From positions 1,284,831 to 1,348,830 of the forward strand of contig CM082578.2 of NCBI GenBank assembly GCA_040954595.2: a DNA stretch of 64,000 nucleotides. The letters run 5' to 3'. A model generated the notes under the pieces. That model worked only from the letters and a program-made list of their open reading frames with translations. It did not search any database and was not told where the DNA came from. The stretch comes from Balanoglossus misakiensis (lineage: Eukaryota; Animalia; Hemichordata). The translations under genes and the position numbers were made by a program. How positions within the stretch are numbered: the stretch's first letter is position 1; every line of letters begins with the position of its first letter. Below, piece after piece: positions 17,775-61,281 of the stretch.

Positions 17775-20333
17775 CACTGGGCAAAAAGGTTGATATACAT
17801 TCAGTATTTTTACGTATATGGACACGTAGATCAGGAATATGCGCAAGTATACAATAGTCTGCACAGTTGTACATCTACAATCTGCACCACGTATATGTGA
17901 CGTATATTCACGTATATGGAACATACCAATGTGTTAGTATACGTGCACGTATATCTATGAAGATCACGGGTGTGCACAACGCAGACCAATGCAGATCAAG
18001 TGCACACTATAAACATTCCAACGTATTTGTACACATTCTCAGTGCATATCTTCCTTGCTATTTGCATGACTGTGTTATTAGCATACGTTACATCATCATC
18101 ACAGACATTTACATTTGCATAGTTGAGTTCACGTTCCTGGTATTTTTACGTATATTTAACGCAGACCTTTCCAGAAATTACCATACATTATGTCATCATT
18201 GTTGGCAAATATTTGCAAAATAATTTTGGGGTCATATTTAAATTACCCCAAAGGTCACAATTCTGGGGTCATCCTTCATGGTCAGGATTTGACCTTTCCT
18301 TCTCATTCACCTTTGCTGTAAATTTGTTACTATTAATCTGCTTTGAGATGCAACTGCATTTCAAAGCAGATCAATAGCAACAAATTGGTAAAAGCATATT
18401 TCAAACCGATGCATTTCCTCCCATCATGCATCAACAAAAAACTGCTCACATAATAAAATTCACTTAAAAGGTTATTTTATTTAAAACATATAAAATGATT
18501 GAAGACATTACATGGACTAAGAACACAGTGTTTTGTTTTTAAATGCAAACCTAAAATCTGAAAAATAATCCTCAAAGTCTAGCTTCATTCAGTAACTCCA
18601 AAATACCATGAAAAATTTGCTTCATCTGACATCATCAGATCGCCTGCTTGCACCATGTTATCCTATTAAGATTTGTCTTCAAAATCCACCATCTTGCCAT
18701 GACTCTGTAGAAGCTGTCAAAAAGAAAAGAAAAAGAGTATTTAGTTTGGTCATCTTAAGCACTTATCTTTGACTGCAGTGCCTATGAGCTACAACTTTTG
18801 GGAAGTCTGAACCACTGGCAGTTTATATAGAGTGGGCTGTAAACACCTTCACCTGGAACACAGCGACAAGTCAGTCCGTTCTGTTTTTACCTTGTCACCA
18901 ACATGACAGTGCACTGTTTAAGTTTATAATAAACGTCCCCCATTGTTTTTAGTTTATGGGTGAAAATGTCTCATTTGCATTCAACAAATCGGGCCATGGG
19001 AAATGTCTTCACACCTTCCAAATGTATACTTTGTTATCTGTCATGGTGACAAGGTACAAAAAGCATACAGATTCAGTGTGCTGTTATCGCAACCAAGGTC
19101 AAATAGTTATGACTGAATAGTTGCTCACTATCACGCGTAAGAGCATGGTTAGAGATACCAAGTATCCAAGCTCAGTAGCAGCTAAAATATATGAACGTCA
19201 GCTATTCTGGCAATCCAGCAATCCCGCGCTTATATGCATCTTTTGTTTGTCGTCAACCATGAAACACTGCGCACACATGGAAATCAACCCAGTTTGTTTA
19301 TCTTTTGTTCTAGCTAATCCTCAAGGCCTTTGATCTTGGCCGATGTTCCGCGTCTTTTTTCTCTACGGGTTATGCTCAATGTTATAAATCATACTACACC
19401 AAATTGAATGAAAAGTCTAAGAATAAAAGAGATATACTTACTCGTTGGTTGTATCAGATGAATCTTCTATGGTTACATAAAGCTGATTGCTTTACCTGCC
19501 GCTGCAAAGTAAAACAAGGGACATTTGAGATAACAATACAAATGCTTGGTGGAAATGTCAAATTGTCAATCAAAACCTGTTTCTAGTTCTACATAGACAT
19601 GCTTGATGCACTAATGCAAACGGCAGAAATAAAAAGGACTTGGACTAACAACGAGTAGAAATAGTGTCAAAACGCAGACACATGGGTGGGGTGGATATGG
19701 ACAAGACCAAAACACGATGTATGTTTAAACTTACAAAAATCATACGATCCGGTCTTCCTTTGTTGGTGCATAGATTATCACCGCCGCATGTCGATTTTCC
19801 CTCAAAGACTTCTGTTCTGCGTCCAGACTATCAAGTTTCTGTGACAACTCTTCTTTCGCTTTGTCTGGTGTTGAAACAAACTTATGCACACGGTTGACGG
19901 CGTACAGTGACTGCCAGCGGTGCTGGTGTTTCTATGTACCGGAGGTGGACGTCGTAAAACGTCGTAAAACAACAAGCGTTTTGTGACATAAAGTGGCCGC
20001 AGAAGTGCGACCCAGATCTTTCATCAAACTTTTGAAAGCGTTTGCTTTTAAAAACGGGTGGTCCAAATAATCCTAATAATTAGCATGAATATACGTACAT
20101 ATACATGGATGTATACTGTAGGCACACTATTCGGTAGAAAATAACTACAAATACGTAGATCTGCGGAACGTATATGTAAGAGAACGTGTACATGATGTAT
20201 ACTTCACGTATTTCTACACATATCTAGCAGCTTGCATTTGTTACGTAAATGCACGTATATGAAACGTATATGTCAAATGTACAAACTTAGTAGTTTTACG
20301 TATATTGTCGTATATCAATCATTTTGCCCAGTG
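17775..20333. mobile_element. Non-autonomous CACTA/EnSpm-like element (2559 bp) inserted 11 nt into a mucin exon
   Basis: TIRs CACTGGGCAAAA..TTGATATAC / GTATATCAA..TTTTGCCCAGTG; 3-bp TSD CAA; empty site gagatgcaatctactc at 9185; subterminal (t)acgtatat repeats. Confidence 0.92.
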
Positions 20334-39020: not shown

Positions 39021-42000
39021 TTAAGCCATAAAAAGTTTCTTGTACAAACTGTACCTATTTTCTATGTCATCCAAGTCAGGTACTATACAACATCTACCTT
39101 TCAGAACAATGTTAAATTCTGCATGAAAAACAAATTTTGATTCTACATATTCATCAACATCAACAACAGTGGGCCACTTAAATGTATTTTTGTACCCTGC
39201 TCTCATGTATTGAACTGTAGCTAACTCTCCAGATTTAGCTTCAACAACTTCTCCAATAAAGTAGCCTTGATCATAAGCAACTGCTACAGGCACACCCTGA
39301 CGAGTAAATTCATAGTGAAAACTCCACTCAGATGCCTCATTATCAGGTAACTCATCATCTGAACAAACAAGCTCTAAATCTGATTCAGAATCTGAAACAG
39401 GGGAAATCTGATCATGCTTTCGTTTCCCACTTTCAGGCAGACTACCAGACTGTCGTGCAAAATCAGATGAATGATCATCTGCAACTGCTGCAGGATTGGA
39501 ATTTAAATAAGCAATAAAATCTGTTTTGAGACAATCAAATGACTTTCTGCCCATTATTAGCCGTTCATCTTTTCTACCTAACACTTTTGTAACATATCTG
39601 ATTTCATTTTTCAGAACACTGGTTTGTTGTGTTTTAGAGTTGGCCTTTGACAACACCTTGGCAACATCACTTGCATTCTTGCATGGCCCCCCATGACTAA
39701 ATACACATGTTGTAATGGTTTGCAGACTGGCTGCTTTTGCAACTTCTTTCTCTTGCTTTCTTTTGCGACTCTCTTCTAATCTTTCTTGTGTTTTTATTTT
39801 AACATCTTTCTCTATTACTCTATATTTTTGCCGCATTGCTGAAGCTTTTGATCGAGCAAATTTCAACAAATGTTGTTGCTCATCAAAGCCTTTGGCAAAC
39901 AACCACTCTGAGATGGTGTGATTTGTCTTCAACATTTGTATGCTTGAATGATAAAATAGTGATGCATGTCGACGTTTAAACATGCCAAAGTCAAGATCAC
40001 CAAACTCATATTCACTTACCAGATTTGTCAATTTGCAATGTTTCATTTCATTTCTCAGTTCCTGGGTGGGTTTGGAACTATACTTTCCCCCAGGGAGGAA
40101 GTCTACAAGTTGTCGTTCAGTGACTATTATAAATGATGTCATCAGGTTTTCCAATGTACTTTTAGTCAGTGGTGAAGAAATGAAATCATCAGAGAACAAA
40201 CTGTCGTAGACTTCATCCCGACGGGGATTGTATTTGTCACCAAACACTCCATTTTGGTCCTTTCCCATCAGTGATGTTGAATCCATTGCCCACTCCTTAA
40301 ATTGTTCAAGCATTGCTTGAATGTGGATGTACTGGTCAACGTATTCAACATCACTTTGCAGCATTAACCAAAATGGACCAGTCACTTTATAATACAGGAT
40401 CCCTAGGGCTCTGGTCAATGCAATTAGCTGTTGACAATTACAGTCAAGTAGAACACTTTCCAGTTTCATATTCATAGACTCAAAATAATTTGTTAGGAAA
40501 TCTGATATCTCTGTGGCATGATGAACTAAAGTGGCAGCTCCAAGAAAGAAATTATTGAAGCGGTTCATTCTAAAACTAGTTATGTATGATTTCTTTTTCA
40601 AGTTTTCACTGAGAAAGGATACCCACTTCATTCTGCAACCATTTTTTTCATCTCCTCTTGGTCCAAGCACATCACACCCAGTCCTGACAAACCGACAAGT
40701 AGCTGAACCTGAGGCCGATTTGAACCTCTGGAATTTCGATGAGGCATCACGACCTAATCCATGACCTAGCTCTGACACTAGTTGTCGTTCAATTTCCCTC
40801 AATTTTGACTCAACGGCTGTGCTAAGACCAAGAAGGAAATGGGCATTGCAGAATAGAAAGTGAGTGTCCATTTCTGTCCCAAAATATTCAGTTTTATAAT
40901 CAGTTAATAGATTATTAAAGGCTTTATTTACACTAGATCTGTCTCCCATGATAGCAAACATTTTCCCAAGGAGAGTTTTAAAAATGGTATCTCTCTCAAC
41001 ATTATCGCACTCTGAATATAAATCACTCAATTCATCAATCATAGAGATGACATTATCCAGTAATGTTGAGCTGTCCTCAACTGCCACTGGTGAAAAACCA
41101 AGAGACATGGTTTTTTTGTTTTCTAGTGTAATTTGTTTACCAATTATCTTTTTTTGATCACGCGAGGTACCATCACTGTGTAAGTCCCACCGCTCTGTCA
41201 AAGTCCCTTCCTCTGCCACTTGATATTTGGCCAAAACATGTGCCCTGTCTACAAAATTTTGTACTGTAGAAGCACTGGGGAGGTCCTTGTCATCCAAGTT
41301 TTCATCATGCAGCCACTTACTCACACATTTGATAACCTTTTTGACATTTTTGGATGATACCTCACACTCCCCTGCTAATTCCATAGAACACATTTCTAAA
41401 GCATCGGTGAATTTATTTGTAGACCCTTCCCTAGTCTGGAAAGTGCAAGCATTATGAGTTTGGCTGTTATGCAATACACCCTGAAGGTCAAGGACCTCTG
41501 CTTTTAAACCCTTTACTTCACTTGACAGTAATTTCATTTTTATTTTATTTCTCAGATTGACATGCTTATATTTACTAATTAAAGTTTGCAATCCATGGGT
41601 TTGACGCTTTAACTGTGTTATTTTCGCTTGATCAATGTTAGTGGTGTCTCTTTGTGTTTCGATCTCCTTTTCCCGTCTCTCTAACTTCTTCAGCTTTCTC
41701 AGGTTTCTTTTATAGTTCACTGTGCCTTTCACTTGTCTAAGCTCGTTTTGGATGTTTCTCACCACTTTCTCCTTTGCAACAATTCTTGCTTTCAGAACTG
41801 ACTGTTTTGTCTCTATGTTTTGAATAACTTTGGTCTTCCCTTCAATGCATTTTGACAGCTTGTTAACTTCTTTCTGCTTTTCGGTGACAAGTTCTGTCAG
41901 GGCAGAAATTTGAATCTTAAGTGTTTCAGTGGCACTGTCATCTGACAAAACACTCCTGTTACCGGATCCGGAACATTTCCTCTTTTGCTTCTGTGGTTTT

Positions 42001-43929
42001 GATGACGTCGAACTGGAAGGAGCAGCCTGACTGCAATCTACACGGAAAATCTCCTCTTTAAAGCTGGCCCCTGCATCATCATTCCGGGACTTGTTTTTAT
42101 TAAGTTTCCGGAACCTCTGTTGCACTCTAGCAATTTCTTTCTTAAGAAATTTCGAATCATGGATGGTAGACTGAAGAATAGGATTTAATGAATGCAAAAA
42201 ATGCATCAAATGCACACTGGTGAGCTTCTCGGACTGAAAAAACTCGGACAGTTCCAGCACTAAACCATTTGTCATGTGGCATTCCCTTGCTGAGGATGGT
42301 AACTCACTAAAGTCGTGCACATGCTTTCGCTGAAGGCCTACGCTTGCTGAAAACTTGCCTATGTAATTGACGTCGACTGCTATCTGATCGTAAAATTCCT
42401 TTCTTGTCTCATCTGACTGACTCAGTGCCCTATCTACAGCATCCCTGATGTGATACTGAAAGCGGTGACGAGGGTAGTGCGGAAACAGCATACTGAGCCA
42501 TGTACATGCTTTCTCCCAGGAAGAAGCAGATTCTGTCATCAGGAGATAAACTTGCAGAAGGAGCCTATTGGTAAGAGGCAACTCTGGAAGTTTATGACGC
42601 CTACCTCTACCCCTAGCTAGGAATGTAGCCCTTAGACTATGCATTGTGTCATTAACTGAAATGGAATAAAAAAAATATTTAATACTATGTCACTTCCTAG
42701 GAATAAGTACTTAACAGTAACACTTATTCATCTACCACACCAGGTCTTGAACTTACCACATGAAAACGCGTTTGCATTCATTAAATCCTATTCTTCAGTC
42801 TACCATCCATGATTCGAAATTTCTTAAGAAAGAAATTGATAGAGTGCGACAGAGGTTCCGGAAACTTAATAAAAACAAGTCACGGAATGATGATGCAGGG
42901 GCCAGCTTTAAAGAGGAGATTTTCAGTCAGGCTCTCCTTCCAGTTCCACGTCATCAAAACCACAGAAGCAAAAGAGGAAATGTTCCAGATCCGGTAACAG
43001 GAGTGTTTTGTCAGATGACAGTGCCACTGAAACACTTAAGATTCAAATTTCTGCCCTGACAGAACTTGTCACCGAAAAGCAGAAAGAAGTTAACAAGCTG
43101 TCAAAATGCATTGAAGGGAAGACCAAAGTAATTCAAAACATAGAGACAAAACAGTCAGTTCTGAAAGAAAGAACTGTTGCTAAGGAGAAAATGGTGAGAA
43201 ACATCCAAAAAGAGCTTAGACAAGTGAAAGGCACAGTGAACTATAAAAGAAACTTTAGAAAGCTGAAGAAGTTAGAGGGACAGGAAAAGGAGATCGAAAC
43301 ACAAAAAGACAAAAAATGTCGAAGTTAAAATACCAAAGACAATTAATCCAAAATTTTAAAAATACAGAGAAAATTTATTTTAATGTTCCAAGTTTTCACG
43401 TTTTTTGTGTTATCAAATATTGACCCTTTTTTGTTAATGCTGTGGAAAATTCGTTCGCTGATGCAAGTTAGCAAAAGTTTAGTAATCAACGGTCCCCCTG
43501 ATAATGAGTGACTGTGGTCAATCAACACTGGACGCCATCTTAGAGTCTAGACTGGAAATATATATCCGATGAAATAAATATGTTTTCTTACAATGCATAT
43601 GTTGAAATGTTCCCGAAAAGAGTTTACGATCGTTTTATTCTACGTCTTAGCATCATTCATATTTTTTTTCAGGTCGATATTCAAATCAGTAGTGTATTTT
43701 CGCTTGCCGAAACTCGAGACCGCTCAGCTGAAATCGGCCGTTCATTTGAGCTATCAATCCTGTGTAACACAGTAAAGTACCACAGGAACACTCACACGCG
43801 TACGATCATTTTATCTGAGTCTTTGTAAATCTGAATTCATGACAGCAAAATAAGATTGGATAGCTTTAAAATGTTTTATTTCATAACATACTCACTTATT
43901 TCAGAATATAGTGTCATTATCTCGTCCAT
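39021..43929 (-). CDS. Divergent hAT-like transposase, two exons (43929-43896 and 42655-39021), about 1222 aa
   Basis: Motifs LHSDGTS, MGDRSSVN, FCNAHFL, NRFN, TNLVSEYEFG fit the D/D/CxxH/RW-like/E order. Exon 1 MDEIMTLYSEI with GTGAGT donor at 43895 joins the TTTCAG acceptor at 42656 in frame to the 1207-aa ORF. Confidence 0.75.
42772..43310 (+). repeat. Inverted (antisense) copy of transposase exon 2 segment 41646-42197, inside the transposase intron
   Basis: + strand ORFs 42760 and 43008 reproduce transposase residues (LHSLNPILQSTIHDSK..., SDDSATETLKIQ...); 12-nt and 1-nt deletions, about 16 substitutions by eye. Confidence 0.95.
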
Positions 43930-49791: not shown

Positions 49792-50940
49792 GTGAGTGAA
49801 TTTTTTTATCATTCATACATAAACTTTACAAATTAATTAATATCTTGACAAATTGTCATCTCTACCCCTTGTTATGTCTTGTCACATACTGTAAAACGGG
49901 ACATTTTCGTGACAGAAAATATTTTGCAATATATCAAAAGAGGCAACTGTGACACGAGAATTAAATTTCCGCATTCTAGTATTTTACTAACTACTCTGGT
50001 ATCTCTGAAAAACATTTTATGCGACTTTATTTTCTTCTTCTTTTTTGCCGAAGTTTGGGAAAATTTGCCGTTTTACAGTAATATGATTGCATCATTATCA
50101 CTTTTGTCCCTATGTAACTATCAAAAATTATAACAACATCATTCAGAACATACAAGGACACTCAAACCCGTCTAAAACAAACCCTGTCTAATCGGGAAAC
50201 CTCTCTTCAACCAACAGCTTTTCCTAGTCCCTTTTACATAGAAACATGTTAATGTGTTGGTGTTCTGTTTAAAAGATTTGACTGTGTAATAAATATGGGT
50301 GTCACACATACACCATTAAGACAGTTCTGAAGCATCTCAGAATTGATACTGTCTTAAAAAAACATGTGTGGACGGTGTAAGTGGTCCTGAAACGTCTCAG
50401 ATTTGAGACGGCTCTGCCAGCCAGACCTGAGCCGGTGTAAGGATTAACACCTCTCCGCAACCCATTGTTTATGGGGCCGAGCCTCAGCGCCCATACATAA
50501 ACTTTGTGTGTGTGGACACAACATGACTCAAAGGATTAATGCTCTGTGGTTAGCACTGGCAAATAGTGTCTCAAATTTTACCCTGTGTGAACCTGGTAAA
50601 AGAGGCATTGTGCCCTAGTGGCTAGGGTTGTGGGTTCGTTACCTAGACCTGGACATTTGGGTAGTATTTGCCTGTTGGATGATATACGAGACACAGACAT
50701 TTGGGTAGTATTTGCCTGTTGGATGATAGATGAAATAAAATTAAAAATATATAGACAAATAAACTGTGTTCTCCTTTCTTTTACAGCATTTGATTGTGAA
50801 AAGCCAGCACCACCAGTTAAAGGTATTTCCATCTGTAATGAGTTTGAGTCGGGTGTGTTCTGTCAGGTGGATTGTTTACCAGGATACAAGTTTGCAAGCC
50901 TGCCAGCACCTTACTATCTCTGCCATAGTGAAGGATATTT

Positions 50941-53106
50941 TATTCTCACGTTCTACGCACGCTGGGAGTGTGAGAACAGAGTGTGAGAACAAATTGTTTA
51001 GACCTTTAGGAACATATCGGCTGTTTACGCTCGTCGATAATATTTCCGGTGAAGAACTGACACTATCGTCAATTCAGATAACGAAAGATTTCGACATCGT
51101 CATGACCGAACCAGCTGCAGCCGTCAACAGTGACGCAAATAATGACCGCCAGAGCCGTTTCGTTACGTTATCCAACGTCGACCTGGAGAAGTTTGTTGCC
51201 GAACAACAAAATCAAGAGACCGTCCGAAAAACAAACAGTCACATCGCTCTGTTGAAGCAGTTTCTGGTCGAAAATGGTGAACACAGAGACGTTTGTGACA
51301 TACCACCTATCGAACTGGACCCGTTAGTTGGGAAGTTTCTTTGCGTCGTACGTAAGGAAGATGGATCTGAATATGAGCCATCCTACTTGCGAGGTATGTT
51401 CAGTAGTGTTGAGCGACATCTGCGCTGGAAGAAATATGGTGTATCTCTAACCAACGGCCCTGAATTTTTCTCGGCGCGGGAGCAACTGAAGGCCAAACAG
51501 AAAGACTTGCGGAAACAAGGTAAAGGCAACCTCCCTAACAAGGCAGAAACCCTGAGTGATGACAACGTCAATCATTTGTATGCGACGAGACAGCTTGGAA
51601 GCCATAGCCCACGGTCCATTATTAACACTCTATGGTTTAATAATATGCTGCATTTTGGCATGCGAGCCATAAAAGAACACCGGTCCCTCTGCTGGGGTGA
51701 TATTCAGCTGAAACGTGATGACCATGGGCGAGAATACCTGGAAATGTCTCGGGAACACCAAACAAAAACAAGAACTGGTGAAAATGTCAACGATGTACGT
51801 CCCGTCAAACCGCAGATGTACGCGTTTCCGTCAAACACAGAGCGATGTCCAGTAACATTGTATAAATTATACAAATCTCTGCGACCCACTGATTTCAATG
51901 ATCCAGAAACCCCTTTCTATTTGGGCATCAAGGATGCCAACCCCAAACCATCTGAAAAGACATGGTTCAAACGCTATCCCATGGGTCCAAATACTATTGC
52001 AAACATCATGAAAAACATGTCAACAGAGAGTGGCCTAACTGAACTAGGCAAGAAACTCACTAATACCAGTGCTAGAAAGTACTTGTTGCAAAAGTTGAAT
52101 GATAACATGGTCCCACCAACACATACAATGCAAAAGAGTGCACATAAAAATGTCCAGTCCATAAATAACTATTGCAAACTCTCAGATAACCAACAGTATG
52201 CTATGTCGAACATTTTGAGTGAGAAAACAGATGTGACACAAAACTACTTTCCTACTGCTGTTGCTGGCTCATCTAATAACTATATGACACAGCAATATCA
52301 GGAAACAAAGCACACACAGAAATTGGAAGCATCCCATGTTCTGGGGTCATCTGCAATCTTCCAAAATTGTCATGTCTCAGGTGGTAATTTTAATGTGCAA
52401 GTGCACTTCCAAAGTGATACTGGGCCACCTTCCAAAAAACGACCAAGGGTGATATATTCAGATTCTGAAAGCAGTCAGGAAAATATTTAAATGTTTTGAC
52501 CAGGTGTATCAAAACATGTGAACATAATATTCATCACTACTAGAATTTTAATGACAAATTTTATAAAATGGCTTGTTTTATTTGATAAACTTTGAATTGA
52601 AAGTCAAACTTCGTTTATTCAAATGTGTTTGAAAGACAATTGCACCTTGTCAAACGGGTACACATCTACTTGTTCTGATTTTTAAAAACAATTTGTTGTT
52701 TATGTGGTTGCTGTTTTGAATTGTAACTCACTATGATGCAGATTTATATGAGAAATCTGTGTAAATAAATCTTTGCAATGTTACAGTCACAAATGTCTTG
52801 GTGTATAAAAACGTATGGATGTGTATGGTAGGAACTACATTTTCTGGGCGGAATGATACTGATCGAAGGTGGTTGATGCTGATGGGTTTTGATTATTGTA
52901 TAATAATGTTCATAAAAAGACAAATTTCTGCAATTATCGGAGGAACGTGAGAAAAAGAATCCCACACACCAATGGTCTGAGATGAAATGTCTCACACTCG
53001 TTGGAGAATTTCTGTCTCACACTCGCCTTCGGCTCGTGTGAGACAGAAATTCTCCAACTCGTGTGAGACATTTCATCTCAGACCATTGGGGGTGTGGGAT
53101 TCTATT
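50941..53106 (+). mobile_element. Crypton-like tyrosine-recombinase DNA transposon (about 2.16 kb)
   Basis: TATT direct repeat at 50941-44 and 53103-06; YR ORF; 148-nt terminal hairpin 52956-53103; 5' end 50943-53 complementary to 52943-53. Confidence 0.85.
51102..52490 (+). CDS. Crypton-type (DUF3504-like) tyrosine recombinase, 462 aa
   Basis: RKEDGSEYEPSYL core-binding motif; HFGMRAIKEH (R), TKTRTG (K), RCPV, TNTSARK (HxxR position with H>T), SAHKN (H), SINNY (Y); PPSKKRPR NLS-like. Family related to ZMYM/QRICH1/KCTD1/KIAA1958 Crypton-derived domains. Confidence 0.88.
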   Translation: MTEPAAAVNSDANNDRQSRFVTLSNVDLEKFVAEQQNQETVRKTNSHIALLKQFLVENGEHRDVCDIPPIELDPLVGKFLCVVRKEDGSEYEPSYLRGMFSSVERHLRWKKYGVSLTNGPEFFSAREQLKAKQKDLRKQGKGNLPNKAETLSDDNVNHLYATRQLGSHSPRSIINTLWFNNMLHFGMRAIKEHRSLCWGDIQLKRDDHGREYLEMSREHQTKTRTGENVNDVRPVKPQMYAFPSNTERCPVTLYKLYKSLRPTDFNDPETPFYLGIKDANPKPSEKTWFKRYPMGPNTIANIMKNMSTESGLTELGKKLTNTSARKYLLQKLNDNMVPPTHTMQKSAHKNVQSINNYCKLSDNQQYAMSNILSEKTDVTQNYFPTAVAGSSNNYMTQQYQETKHTQKLEASHVLGSSAIFQNCHVSGGNFNVQVHFQSDTGPPSKKRPRVIYSDSESSQENI

Positions 53107-53531
53107 AATCCTGAGAATCCAGACGAGGAATTCACCTTCCCTGGATGTTCAGGTGAGAAAAAAATGATTTGGTATCAGTAAAGAAATATAATCAGGTTGC
53201 ACATGCACATTCAGAAAATTCTCCAAAGAGAGAGAGTTGTGAGAGGGGGTATTCCAGCATTGAGACAATTTTCTTTTAGTTATAAATGAAAAGAGAAATA
53301 TGAGTAATGCAAATTCTTGCTTTACAGTATGTCAAGGTTGTGATTACAGGTAGATAATTTGTTAACATCATATCTGCTTACCCCAATATAAAGCTCCAGT
53401 ACATTTGAGCTATTTTCTTAATATTTTGTTCTGGGTAAGCAGCTGTAACTTTCCTGATTGGCTAAGCGGTTTCGCAGTCTAAGTCAATACATCGTTCGCT
53501 AGATTTGTTTGTTTGTATTGTTCTACTGCAG

Positions 53532-60832: not shown

Positions 60833-61281
60833 CACAGGGGGCTGCAAACATGAAAGTTATAAATGGCGGAGTTCCTGCATTTTCCCCCAATAAACATTAA
60901 TTGATGAACAGTCTTTGTGCTTGTTTATTTTTCTGTGTTACCTCCACCTGTCTTAGCAGTTGCTAATCCAGAATACAAGCTATTGCATTTCCCATTAAGC
61001 ACCTGCTAACGACTTAATCTGCGTGCCCCATCCACGGATTTAGTGGATTAAGTAAACATCGGTCAGTTCTCACTTGGTAAGAGAATACCCAGTACTCGCT
61101 GACCGATGTTTACTTTATTAACTTAATCCGTGGATGGGGCACACAGATTAAGTCGTTAGCAGGTGATTAATGGGAAATGGGTAGCTTTTATTCTGGATTA
61201 GCAAATGATAAGACAGGTTGGGAAAACGCAGAATGGAACGTACTTCGCCATTTATAACTTTCATGTTTGCAGCCCCCTGTG
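60833..61281. mobile_element. Foldback MITE, almost entirely palindromic
   Basis: CACAGGGGGCTGCAAACATGAAAGTTATAAATGGCG...CGCCATTTATAACTTTCATGTTTGCAGCCCCCTGTG; flanks gtactcg / gtactag (possible 7-bp TSD). Confidence 0.85.

Follow-up and report, generated by a model that had tools for sequence, protein, structure and literature searches.

The mechanism of Crypton mobility is undemonstrated, a duplex circle having been assumed in a 2026 review (PMC13565253), and no terminal repeats were found in animal Cryptons by Kojima and Jurka in 2011 (PMC3212892). Folded or complementary single strands are described for other systems. In CTX phage, attP(+) consists of two inverted site copies, ∼100 to 150 nt apart, which fold back on one strand with the overlap bases unpaired, and one exchange followed by replication has been shown (PMC3442271). 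In integrons, the bottom strand of attC is chosen on structure over sequence, with an unpaired central spacer and few crossover bases, the strand being picked by extrahelical bases in a site that is complete in one palindrome (PMC2727003). DIRS elements encode a tyrosine recombinase and carry an essential internal complementary region (ICR) near the right end, in which complements of both extremities lie side by side, and their intermediates are single-stranded antisense DNA (PMC7192593). We examined a 64,000-nt stretch of DNA from the hemichordate Balanoglossus misakiensis (GCA_040954595.2, contig CM082578.2, positions 1,284,831 to 1,348,830), termed here the window, in which the element at 50943 to 53105 (+ strand; ∼2.16 kb) is an intact CryptonA by every feature tested. 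A terminal hairpin with G·A and GNA marks on one strand, together with an internal copy of the joined ends, is a design conserved across families, and we infer, with slightly better than even confidence, that the recombinase inserts the element as a folded bottom strand, through a site like those of CTX phage or attC and by one strand exchange followed by replication.

An initial annotation, made from the sequence alone, had proposed a 148-nt terminal hairpin at 52956 to 53103 with two symmetric mismatches, a bulge near the base and a TTC loop, and base-by-base pairing bore this out. The hairpin, whose bottom strand is the predicted former of a continuous helix, contained 67 Watson-Crick pairs in runs of 12, 29, 23 and 3, interrupted by a 1 × 2 loop near the base (52968 opposite 53090-53091) and by two 2 × 2 loops (TC at 52998-52999 against TC at 53059-53060 and TC at 53023-53024 against TC at 53034-53035), with the TTC tip at 53028 to 53030 of the top strand. 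A repeat finder returned the arms 52969-53027/53031-53089 and 52953-52970/53089-53106. The annotated bottom-strand structure was likewise recovered: each 2 × 2 loop reads as tandem G·A/A·G inside CGAG/CGAG, giving an outer block (52997 to 53000, partner 53058 to 53061) with predicted tandem sheared G·A pairs and an inner block (53022 to 53025, partner 53033 to 53036), and the tip reads as a C-GAA-G triloop (53027 to 53031). By nuclear magnetic resonance, CGAG blocks form stable sheared-G·A hairpins in DNA (PMC10085684), and c-GNA-g loops are unusually stable in DNA (PMC3201870). The computed fold had an energy of -77.6 kcal/mol (z score, about -19), and 0 of 200 shuffles were as good, on either strand. 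The nearest-neighbor model contains no terms for sheared G·A pairs or GNA loops, and as its energies are almost equal for the two strands, strand specificity in this copy was drawn from the published stability of these motifs and not from the computed fold; both strands would form a long stem, and the difference between them would be one of shape and of nucleation at the tip. Contigs of two public sequencing runs, X1 (record 6) and X2 (record 13), crossed the hairpin with zero differences inside it, and an assembly error is therefore not the source of the structure; runs X1, X2 and X3 represent one sample, possibly the source of the window DNA. Two other long hairpins of the window, at 18321 to 18386 and 60986 to 61179, served as controls and had no tandem TC/TC loops.

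A commoner related family, having both ends in common with the element, was present in the same runs. Ten contigs of X1, 18 of X2 and 1 of X3 had G in place of T at position 53029, which makes the bottom-strand tip GCA; this is the only position at which a GNA loop accepts a change. The contigs had no listed change at 53033 to 53036 or 53058 to 53061, and a single change was seen at 53024 (two contigs in X1 and two in X2). In one X3 contig, all three listed changes of the outer right arm were matched by its left arm, as read by eye. A short relative in X3 (record 19, aligned to window positions 53015 to 53081) apparently lacked one 25-nt unit of the left arm and kept both right units; its fold would be branched rather than rod-like.

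A profile scan brought in more distant relatives: 80 loci from metagenomes, out of 253 confirmed, and 3 from a genome collection, one of the latter (L083) being a weak profile match. Locus searches with the single protein had returned no relative in metagenome or viral contigs, and no RNA record containing the element was listed. A long hairpin was defined by a strand-symmetric score of at least 60. Such a hairpin was present in 24 of the 51 loci that had at least 450 nt of downstream DNA, although the best hairpin of two loci (L045 and L071) belonged to a neighboring element. Grouping of the 25 hairpins, that of the window included, gave 17 clusters at 90% identity, 10 at 80% and 7 at 75%; the window hairpin was only 48 to 61% identical to the others. 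The 25 hairpins contained 74 loops of 2 × 2 bases, of which 49 were GA/GA on the bottom strand, 4 were GA/GA on the top strand, 5 were near variants and 16 were of other types. Bottom-strand GA/GA occurred in 22 of the 25 hairpins and in 6 of the 7 clusters at 75% identity, while L004 and L034, which have inverted inner parts, accounted for all four top-strand loops. A c-GNA-g tip (GAA, GTA or GCA) was present on the bottom strand in 12 of 25 hairpins; the other tips were g-GTA-c, TTT, CTTG or TCTT loops or were deleted. Many tips were zippers of 2-bp steps and G·A tandems that Watson-Crick pairing alone leaves unfolded.

A strict blind count of tandems, requiring eight pairs outside and two inside, was performed on 82 loci. 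Bottom-strand GA/GA was found at 21 sites in 15 loci and its mirror at 4 sites in 3 loci, and the ten other tandem types accounted for 3 sites together, with 2 sites upstream and 0 in open reading frames (ORFs). In a loose count, 52 of 57 GA sites had the context Py-GA-Pu. When 15 hairpins from the largest cluster were aligned, both sides had changed at 22 of 46 pairs. The annotation had named lack of conservation of the mismatches as grounds for discarding its proposal and had suggested a covariation analysis; mismatches and GNA tip turned out to be conserved on one strand across unrelated stems, the stems changed on both sides, and the split palindrome recurred and covaried. Its claim of a strand-specific hairpin was supported by the one-strand G·A/GNA pattern across families but not by the energies of this copy, which are nearly equal. 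Folding of the bottom strand in DNA form, at one step or another, is very probable.

The remainder of the proposed site was split between the two ends. As the annotation had stated, the 5' terminal arm (50943 to 50953) was an exact reverse complement of 52943 to 52953 (11/11; rough chance at that position, 3e-6), and a repeat finder returned the inverted pair 50940-50953/52943-52956. An ICR-like inverted copy of the joined ends thus lies at 52943 to 52969, in which 52943 to 52953 pairs with the 5' end and 52956 to 52969 with the 3' end. In a circular fold, 50945 to 50953 paired with 52943 to 52951 and the stem ran on across the joint, on both strands. The annotation had held that the stem crosses the junction only after circularization; the circular fold does continue the stem, but the 5' end could also pair in a linear strand, and only a continuous junction needs a circle. 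A weaker local partner of the 5' end was found at ∼50964 to 50990. The crossover faces one extra base and an A·A mismatch (T·T on the bottom strand) in the internal copy: in both the window element and locus L030, pairing holds at the base adjoining the 5' arm, the following base forms this mismatch and the lengths beyond are unequal.

The DNA immediately 5' of the hairpin base was compared with the reverse complement of sequence upstream of the ORF in 23 testable loci, and in 15 of them the match beat every one of 20 shuffles. Across 11 positive loci, a locus's own 5' end matched the internal copy at 11.2 of 12 positions, against 7.8 for the ends of other loci; on these sequence comparisons, the internal copy and the 5' end covary across families. 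A joint of the predicted form exists naturally in L030 (2360 to 2410), where the 3' end runs straight, head to tail, into the locus's own 5'-end sequence, and this joint was complementary to the internal copy of L030 with the same spacer, first paired and then mismatched. Joining of the ends creates inverted arms that flank a 6- to 7-nt spacer in some families, as also seen with loose ends in X3, which come from two different contigs. The CTAT-type 3' end of the element was shared by 22 of 27 3' ends of relatives, read by eye, and the CTAT-type spacer preceded none of 14 5' ends in the left flanks. On either strand, the cut made by a tyrosine recombinase lies at the 5' border of the spacer. 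Retention of the spacer at the 3' end therefore points to, and its distribution fits, a cut of the bottom strand only, the strand that bears the G·A pattern.

The single long ORF of the element (51102 to 52490, + strand) encodes an intronless DUF3504 tyrosine recombinase of 462 amino acids, and the Crypton-like recombinase of the annotation was thereby substantiated. Two Pfam families only were matched, DUF3504 (PF12012; 95.3 bits; E value, 5e-27; cutoff, 29.7) and Phage_integrase (PF00589; 30.2 bits), and no GCR1_C, peptidase, DDE, reverse transcriptase or HUH domain was present; ORF, repeat and Pfam scans of the element detected no reverse transcriptase, RNase H or inverted long terminal repeats (LTRs). 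The catalytic residues R188, K222, R325, H348 and Y357 were kept. At the H-x-x-R position the protein has T322, probably a natural variant of the catalytic H, judging from an alignment of 26 proteins read by eye (T in 9, H in 16 and D in 1); a pattern-based tally of this position, in which only 8 of 119 proteins were matched, was discarded. A homologue search gave 118 proteins, the best two named being acorn-worm proteins (68% and 65%). The AlphaFold model had a mean pLDDT of 81, with a disordered C-terminal tail. Among the fold matches listed, the closest was Cre (Z score, 20.4; root mean square deviation [RMSD], 3.4 Å over 304 residues), followed by QRICH1 (Z score, 16.5; RMSD, 16.6) and XerA (Z score, 15.7; RMSD, 14.1), and the integron integrase IntI (2a3v) was matched with a Z score of 15.1 and an RMSD of 4.0. 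Compared with the ORF of the window element, the contigs carried three silent changes within the recombinase part, two missense changes, at and immediately beyond the end of that part, and an in-frame insertion of 6 nt, as would be expected if selection on the ORF persists.

Relative to described animal CryptonA elements, the window element is alike in having one DUF3504 ORF without an extra domain, a length of about 2.1 to 2.3 kb, a short direct repeat and non-autonomous relatives, while the hairpin, the G·A/GNA pattern and the internal copy are additions here. The word "hairpin" is absent from the available text of PMC3212892 and its supplements, of the paper on the fungal Glomhopper (PMC13465315) and of PMC5753468. 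No published Crypton terminal hairpin was found, although Repbase, Dfam and most subscription papers, which lay outside the search, may describe one; the family-wide end structure and the likely mechanism were thus not found in print, whereas the superfamily itself is known. The closest layout was that of CTX attP(+), as the element also has two inverted site copies that fold back on one strand at a similar spacing and leave the overlap bases unpaired, and the single exchange with replication would have its counterpart here. CTX relies on host XerC/XerD and a fixed dif target, in contrast to a single element-encoded enzyme and a loose T/TAT target; its single-stranded DNA comes in a virion, of which there is none here, and sheared G·A blocks are unmentioned for CTX in the accessible part of PMC3442271.

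The attC-like mechanism advanced in the annotation stood in part. A strand-biased imperfect hairpin with an unpaired central spacer and few crossover bases is shared with attC in sequence pattern, including the choice of the bottom strand and of structure over sequence, but the layout is nearer to CTX attP(+), and neither attC R boxes (GTT/AAC) nor attC-type conserved extrahelical bases were found, the crossover being of the CTAT type and the defects being symmetric 2 × 2 loops. In contrast to attC, the two ends of the element each contribute part of the site, G·A tandems and a GNA tip mark the strand, and the enzyme resembles Cre. DIRS elements share with this locus an internal region complementary to both extremities, its position near the right end, a tyrosine recombinase and, on the mechanism proposed below, an antisense single strand; the locus differs in having no reverse transcriptase, gag or LTRs and in a complement of 11 to 30 nt that is mismatched at the joint and continuous with the hairpin. 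Vibrio strand-biased elements (PMC9345347) circularize one specific strand, as is proposed here, and carry the crossover, of 6 bp, at one end after insertion; these elements contain four genes, and a folded att structure was not detected for them.

On the mechanism proposed here, the bottom (antisense) strand would be released as a circle, whether by single-stranded copying or by extrusion from a circular duplex. Helped by its GNA tip and by the blocks of sheared G·A pairs, this strand would then zip up as one continuous helix and place the internal copy opposite the joined ends, so that a duplex-like site would form in which the spacer is paired at its first base and unpaired thereafter. The recombinase would exchange the bottom strand only, with a target sharing ∼1 to 3 bases (T, often TAT); the unpaired patch would block a second exchange, replication would resolve the intermediate and the spacer would always be left at the 3' end of the element. 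We infer both the single-stranded circle and cleavage of the folded strand rather than of a duplex joint. Whether CryptonA in animals is more broadly the eukaryotic counterpart of CTX phage and integron cassettes, with a folded antisense strand, G·A/GNA marks, a site made from both ends and an internal copy, one exchange and almost no target homology, is an evenly balanced proposition.

Several findings weigh against this mechanism. In the window copy, the nearest-neighbor energies of the top and bottom strands were only 0.3 kcal/mol apart (-77.0 versus -77.3), and the perfect 23- and 29-bp runs would fold either strand; over the 25 hairpins the bottom strand was lower in 20, by a mean of 1.45 kcal/mol. 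No strong hairpin was found in 27 of 51 loci, owing to contig ends or deletions in the hairpin or without explanation, and the loci are not independent, forming only 7 to 10 independent groups, with one cluster containing 18 of the 25 hairpins. The loose tandem count, which required four outer pairs, did not discriminate (GA, 57; AA, 53; TT, 54) and is uninformative because composition swamps it, and homogenization of the arms can fake covariation. In L004 (2093 to 2262) and L034 (1089 to 1224), inversion of the inner part has placed the G·A zipper, together with the GCA tip, on the top strand; for L034, whose adjoining perfect arm measures only ∼12 bp, a flip during assembly is unlikely. The internal copy had no significant match in 8 of the 23 testable loci, and L062, one of the 15 positives, is probably a chance match. 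In the left flanks, A and T were each present in 7 of 14 at the two preceding places, and the microhomology is weak alone. A dyad of arm, spacer and arm was clear in 4 of 13 loci (7 to 8 of 9 positions, against 5 of 9 here), with a mean score no higher than at other centers, and the argument from spacer polarity is weak because the arms could be clearly assigned in only those four. No circle joint was listed among the contigs of the three runs, but contigs drop rare forms and this absence carries no weight. The enzyme fold is also nearer to Cre than to IntI.

Other explanations of the structure were weighed on the same evidence. The bottom strand could fold only as a DIRS-like splint that aligns and joins the ends, with second-strand synthesis following and the recombinase acting on a duplex joint. 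This would accord with the ICR layout of the internal copy, with the inverted arms around a spacer in some families, with a Cre-like enzyme and with duplex circles as the published proposal. A ligation splint should, however, pair at the joint, where a mismatch sits in both the window element and L030; were both strands exchanged between spacers that do not match, the spacer would at times be expected on the left, where none of 14 flanks had it. The element also encodes no reverse transcriptase. We regard this explanation, the main rival, as unlikely. The distance of the G·A blocks from the crossover (30 to 70 nt) is too great for a core site and raises a second alternative, namely that the hairpin is some other DNA signal, such as a priming site or origin, a cruciform bound by the host or a handle for strand copy-out, while the recombinase cuts duplex ends. 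Strand-biased circularization by tyrosine recombinases without folded sites is documented (PMC9345347), and the inverted apices of L004 and L034 show template switching of the replication fork in the hairpin. Such a signal leaves the covariation of the hairpin base with a 5' end 2 kb away unexplained, and the Vibrio strand-biased elements need four genes where this element has one; the alternative is considered improbable.

A role of the structure as RNA, either in an antisense transcript with tandem G·A or in an RNA intermediate with reverse transcriptase supplied in trans, was judged very unlikely. Copying of a sense transcript into first-strand cDNA would yield the bottom strand, and the excess of G·T wobbles on that strand (34, versus 18 on the top strand) also fits RNA. 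Against these points, c-GNA-g triloops are a DNA motif (PMC3201870), Rfam returned only generic microRNA-hairpin matches far under the gathering scores, and AATAAA precedes the hairpin in this element, as it does in 17 of 23 loci, although this is weak evidence in AT-rich DNA. Two relatives moreover keep GT-AG introns at a shared position of the recombinase gene (L063, 387 to 532; L066, 1286 to 2355), of which L066 also has a G·A hairpin tip at the contig end but no internal-copy match. Finally, the palindrome might be a neutral by-product, kept alike by template switching, with mismatches that just limit its perfect length. Perfected or inverted copies do exist, the CGAG block having been converted to perfect pairs in L062 and the first hairpin of L045 and the apices inverted in L004 and L034, and perfect runs remain at 9 to 35 bp. 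Any mismatch would break a palindrome, yet 1 of 12 tandem types dominates on one strand in a Py-GA-Pu context, and the two control hairpins of the window have no tandem TC/TC loops; this explanation is largely refuted already and retains hardly any probability. A protelomerase or rolling-hairpin model was rejected, since flipped hairpins made up 2 of 25 and not about half, with no protelomerase among 50 structure matches listed.

The window copy is intact, intronless and autonomous, with ends defined by an exon and a hairpin sequence family unlike the others. It combines a candidate substrate with an intact enzyme and with predictions of the strand and of the cut position, and Crypton mobility thereby becomes a direct question for the bench. 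If the proposed mechanism were true, animals would have a tyrosine recombinase that acts on a folded single strand, and sheared G·A/GNA DNA structures would have a biological role; the mechanism would also supply a rule to find and delimit non-autonomous Cryptons, shed light on the DNA-binding ancestry of ZMYM/QRICH1/KCTD1 and possibly provide an integration tool for single-stranded DNA donors without a double-strand break.

The ends of the element were defined by the host exon that it interrupts. The 5' half of this exon (50787 to 50943, + strand) is cysteine-rich and the 3' half (53106 to 53152, + strand) stops at a GT donor; excision of 2,162 nt restores a 204-nt in-frame symmetrical exon (phase 1/phase 1) of a large gene with pentaxin and ephrin-receptor-like repeats. 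Contig matches of the relatives in the same sample broke off at the same two ends, with other flanks, and the interruption of a spliced in-frame exon together with these related ends indicated mobility. Only a 4-bp terminal direct repeat, TATT, was present (left copy, 50941 to 50944; right copy, 53103 to 53106; both + strand), consistent with target microhomology, and no end-to-end terminal inverted repeat (TIR) was returned by the repeat search, as expected of a CryptonA; because of the repeated TATT, the ends are uncertain by up to 4 nt. Some X1 contigs skipped the element, but these were rejected as a clean empty site, as the skips were of 2,165 or 2,167 nt rather than 2,162 and the short side was 28 letters, and they were treated as a diverged allele or paralogue. 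Exon variants in the contigs included an 8-nt deletion at 50897 and inexact skips, and the host gene may be multicopy, given these diverged versions.

A putative polyadenylation signal, AATAAA, lies at 52764 to 52769 (+ strand), 5' of the hairpin. The annotation had noted motifs recurring at both ends, and GTGAGA/TCTCAC cores were located at both, at 50944, 50970, 50983, 52947, 52990, 53015, 53038 and 53063, with a further core inside the ORF (52219) and another in the flank (53153). Two 13-nt subterminal direct repeats with a GTGAGA core (50966 to 50991, + strand) can pair loosely with the 5' arm and are likely to be extra binding sites of the recombinase.

Among the more distant loci, a second, shorter inverted repeat was seen ∼70 to 300 nt 5' of the ORF, with a CCAAT box in the loop and palindromic TCAC cores (L011, 743 to 827; L018, 2823 to 2894; and L021, L032, L036, L044, L046 and L050), and these repeats are possible autoregulatory sites; no CCAAT was present in the 5' 160 nt of the window element. 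Short hairpin elements with tandem G·A loops, most of which start AACAATTA, lay near or inside recombinase loci (L011, 61 to 143; L019, 3691 to 3804; L048, 1734 to 1837; L070, 4667 to 4771; L071, 4668 to 4772; and L082, 1239 to 1321) and are probably non-autonomous Cryptons. A 228-nt interruption of the recombinase gene in L081 (2342 to 2569) was rejected as an intron and read as a palindromic insertion with a flanking duplication. L081 and L082 are Crypton loci within records of bacterial metagenome-assembled genomes, a placement that is probably host contamination. Elsewhere in the window, a high-copy repeat was present at 50300 to 50600, just 5' of the host exon, and a long inverted repeat at 41645 to 43311, with arms of 378 and 157 nt and 97% identity, is probably a TIR transposon.

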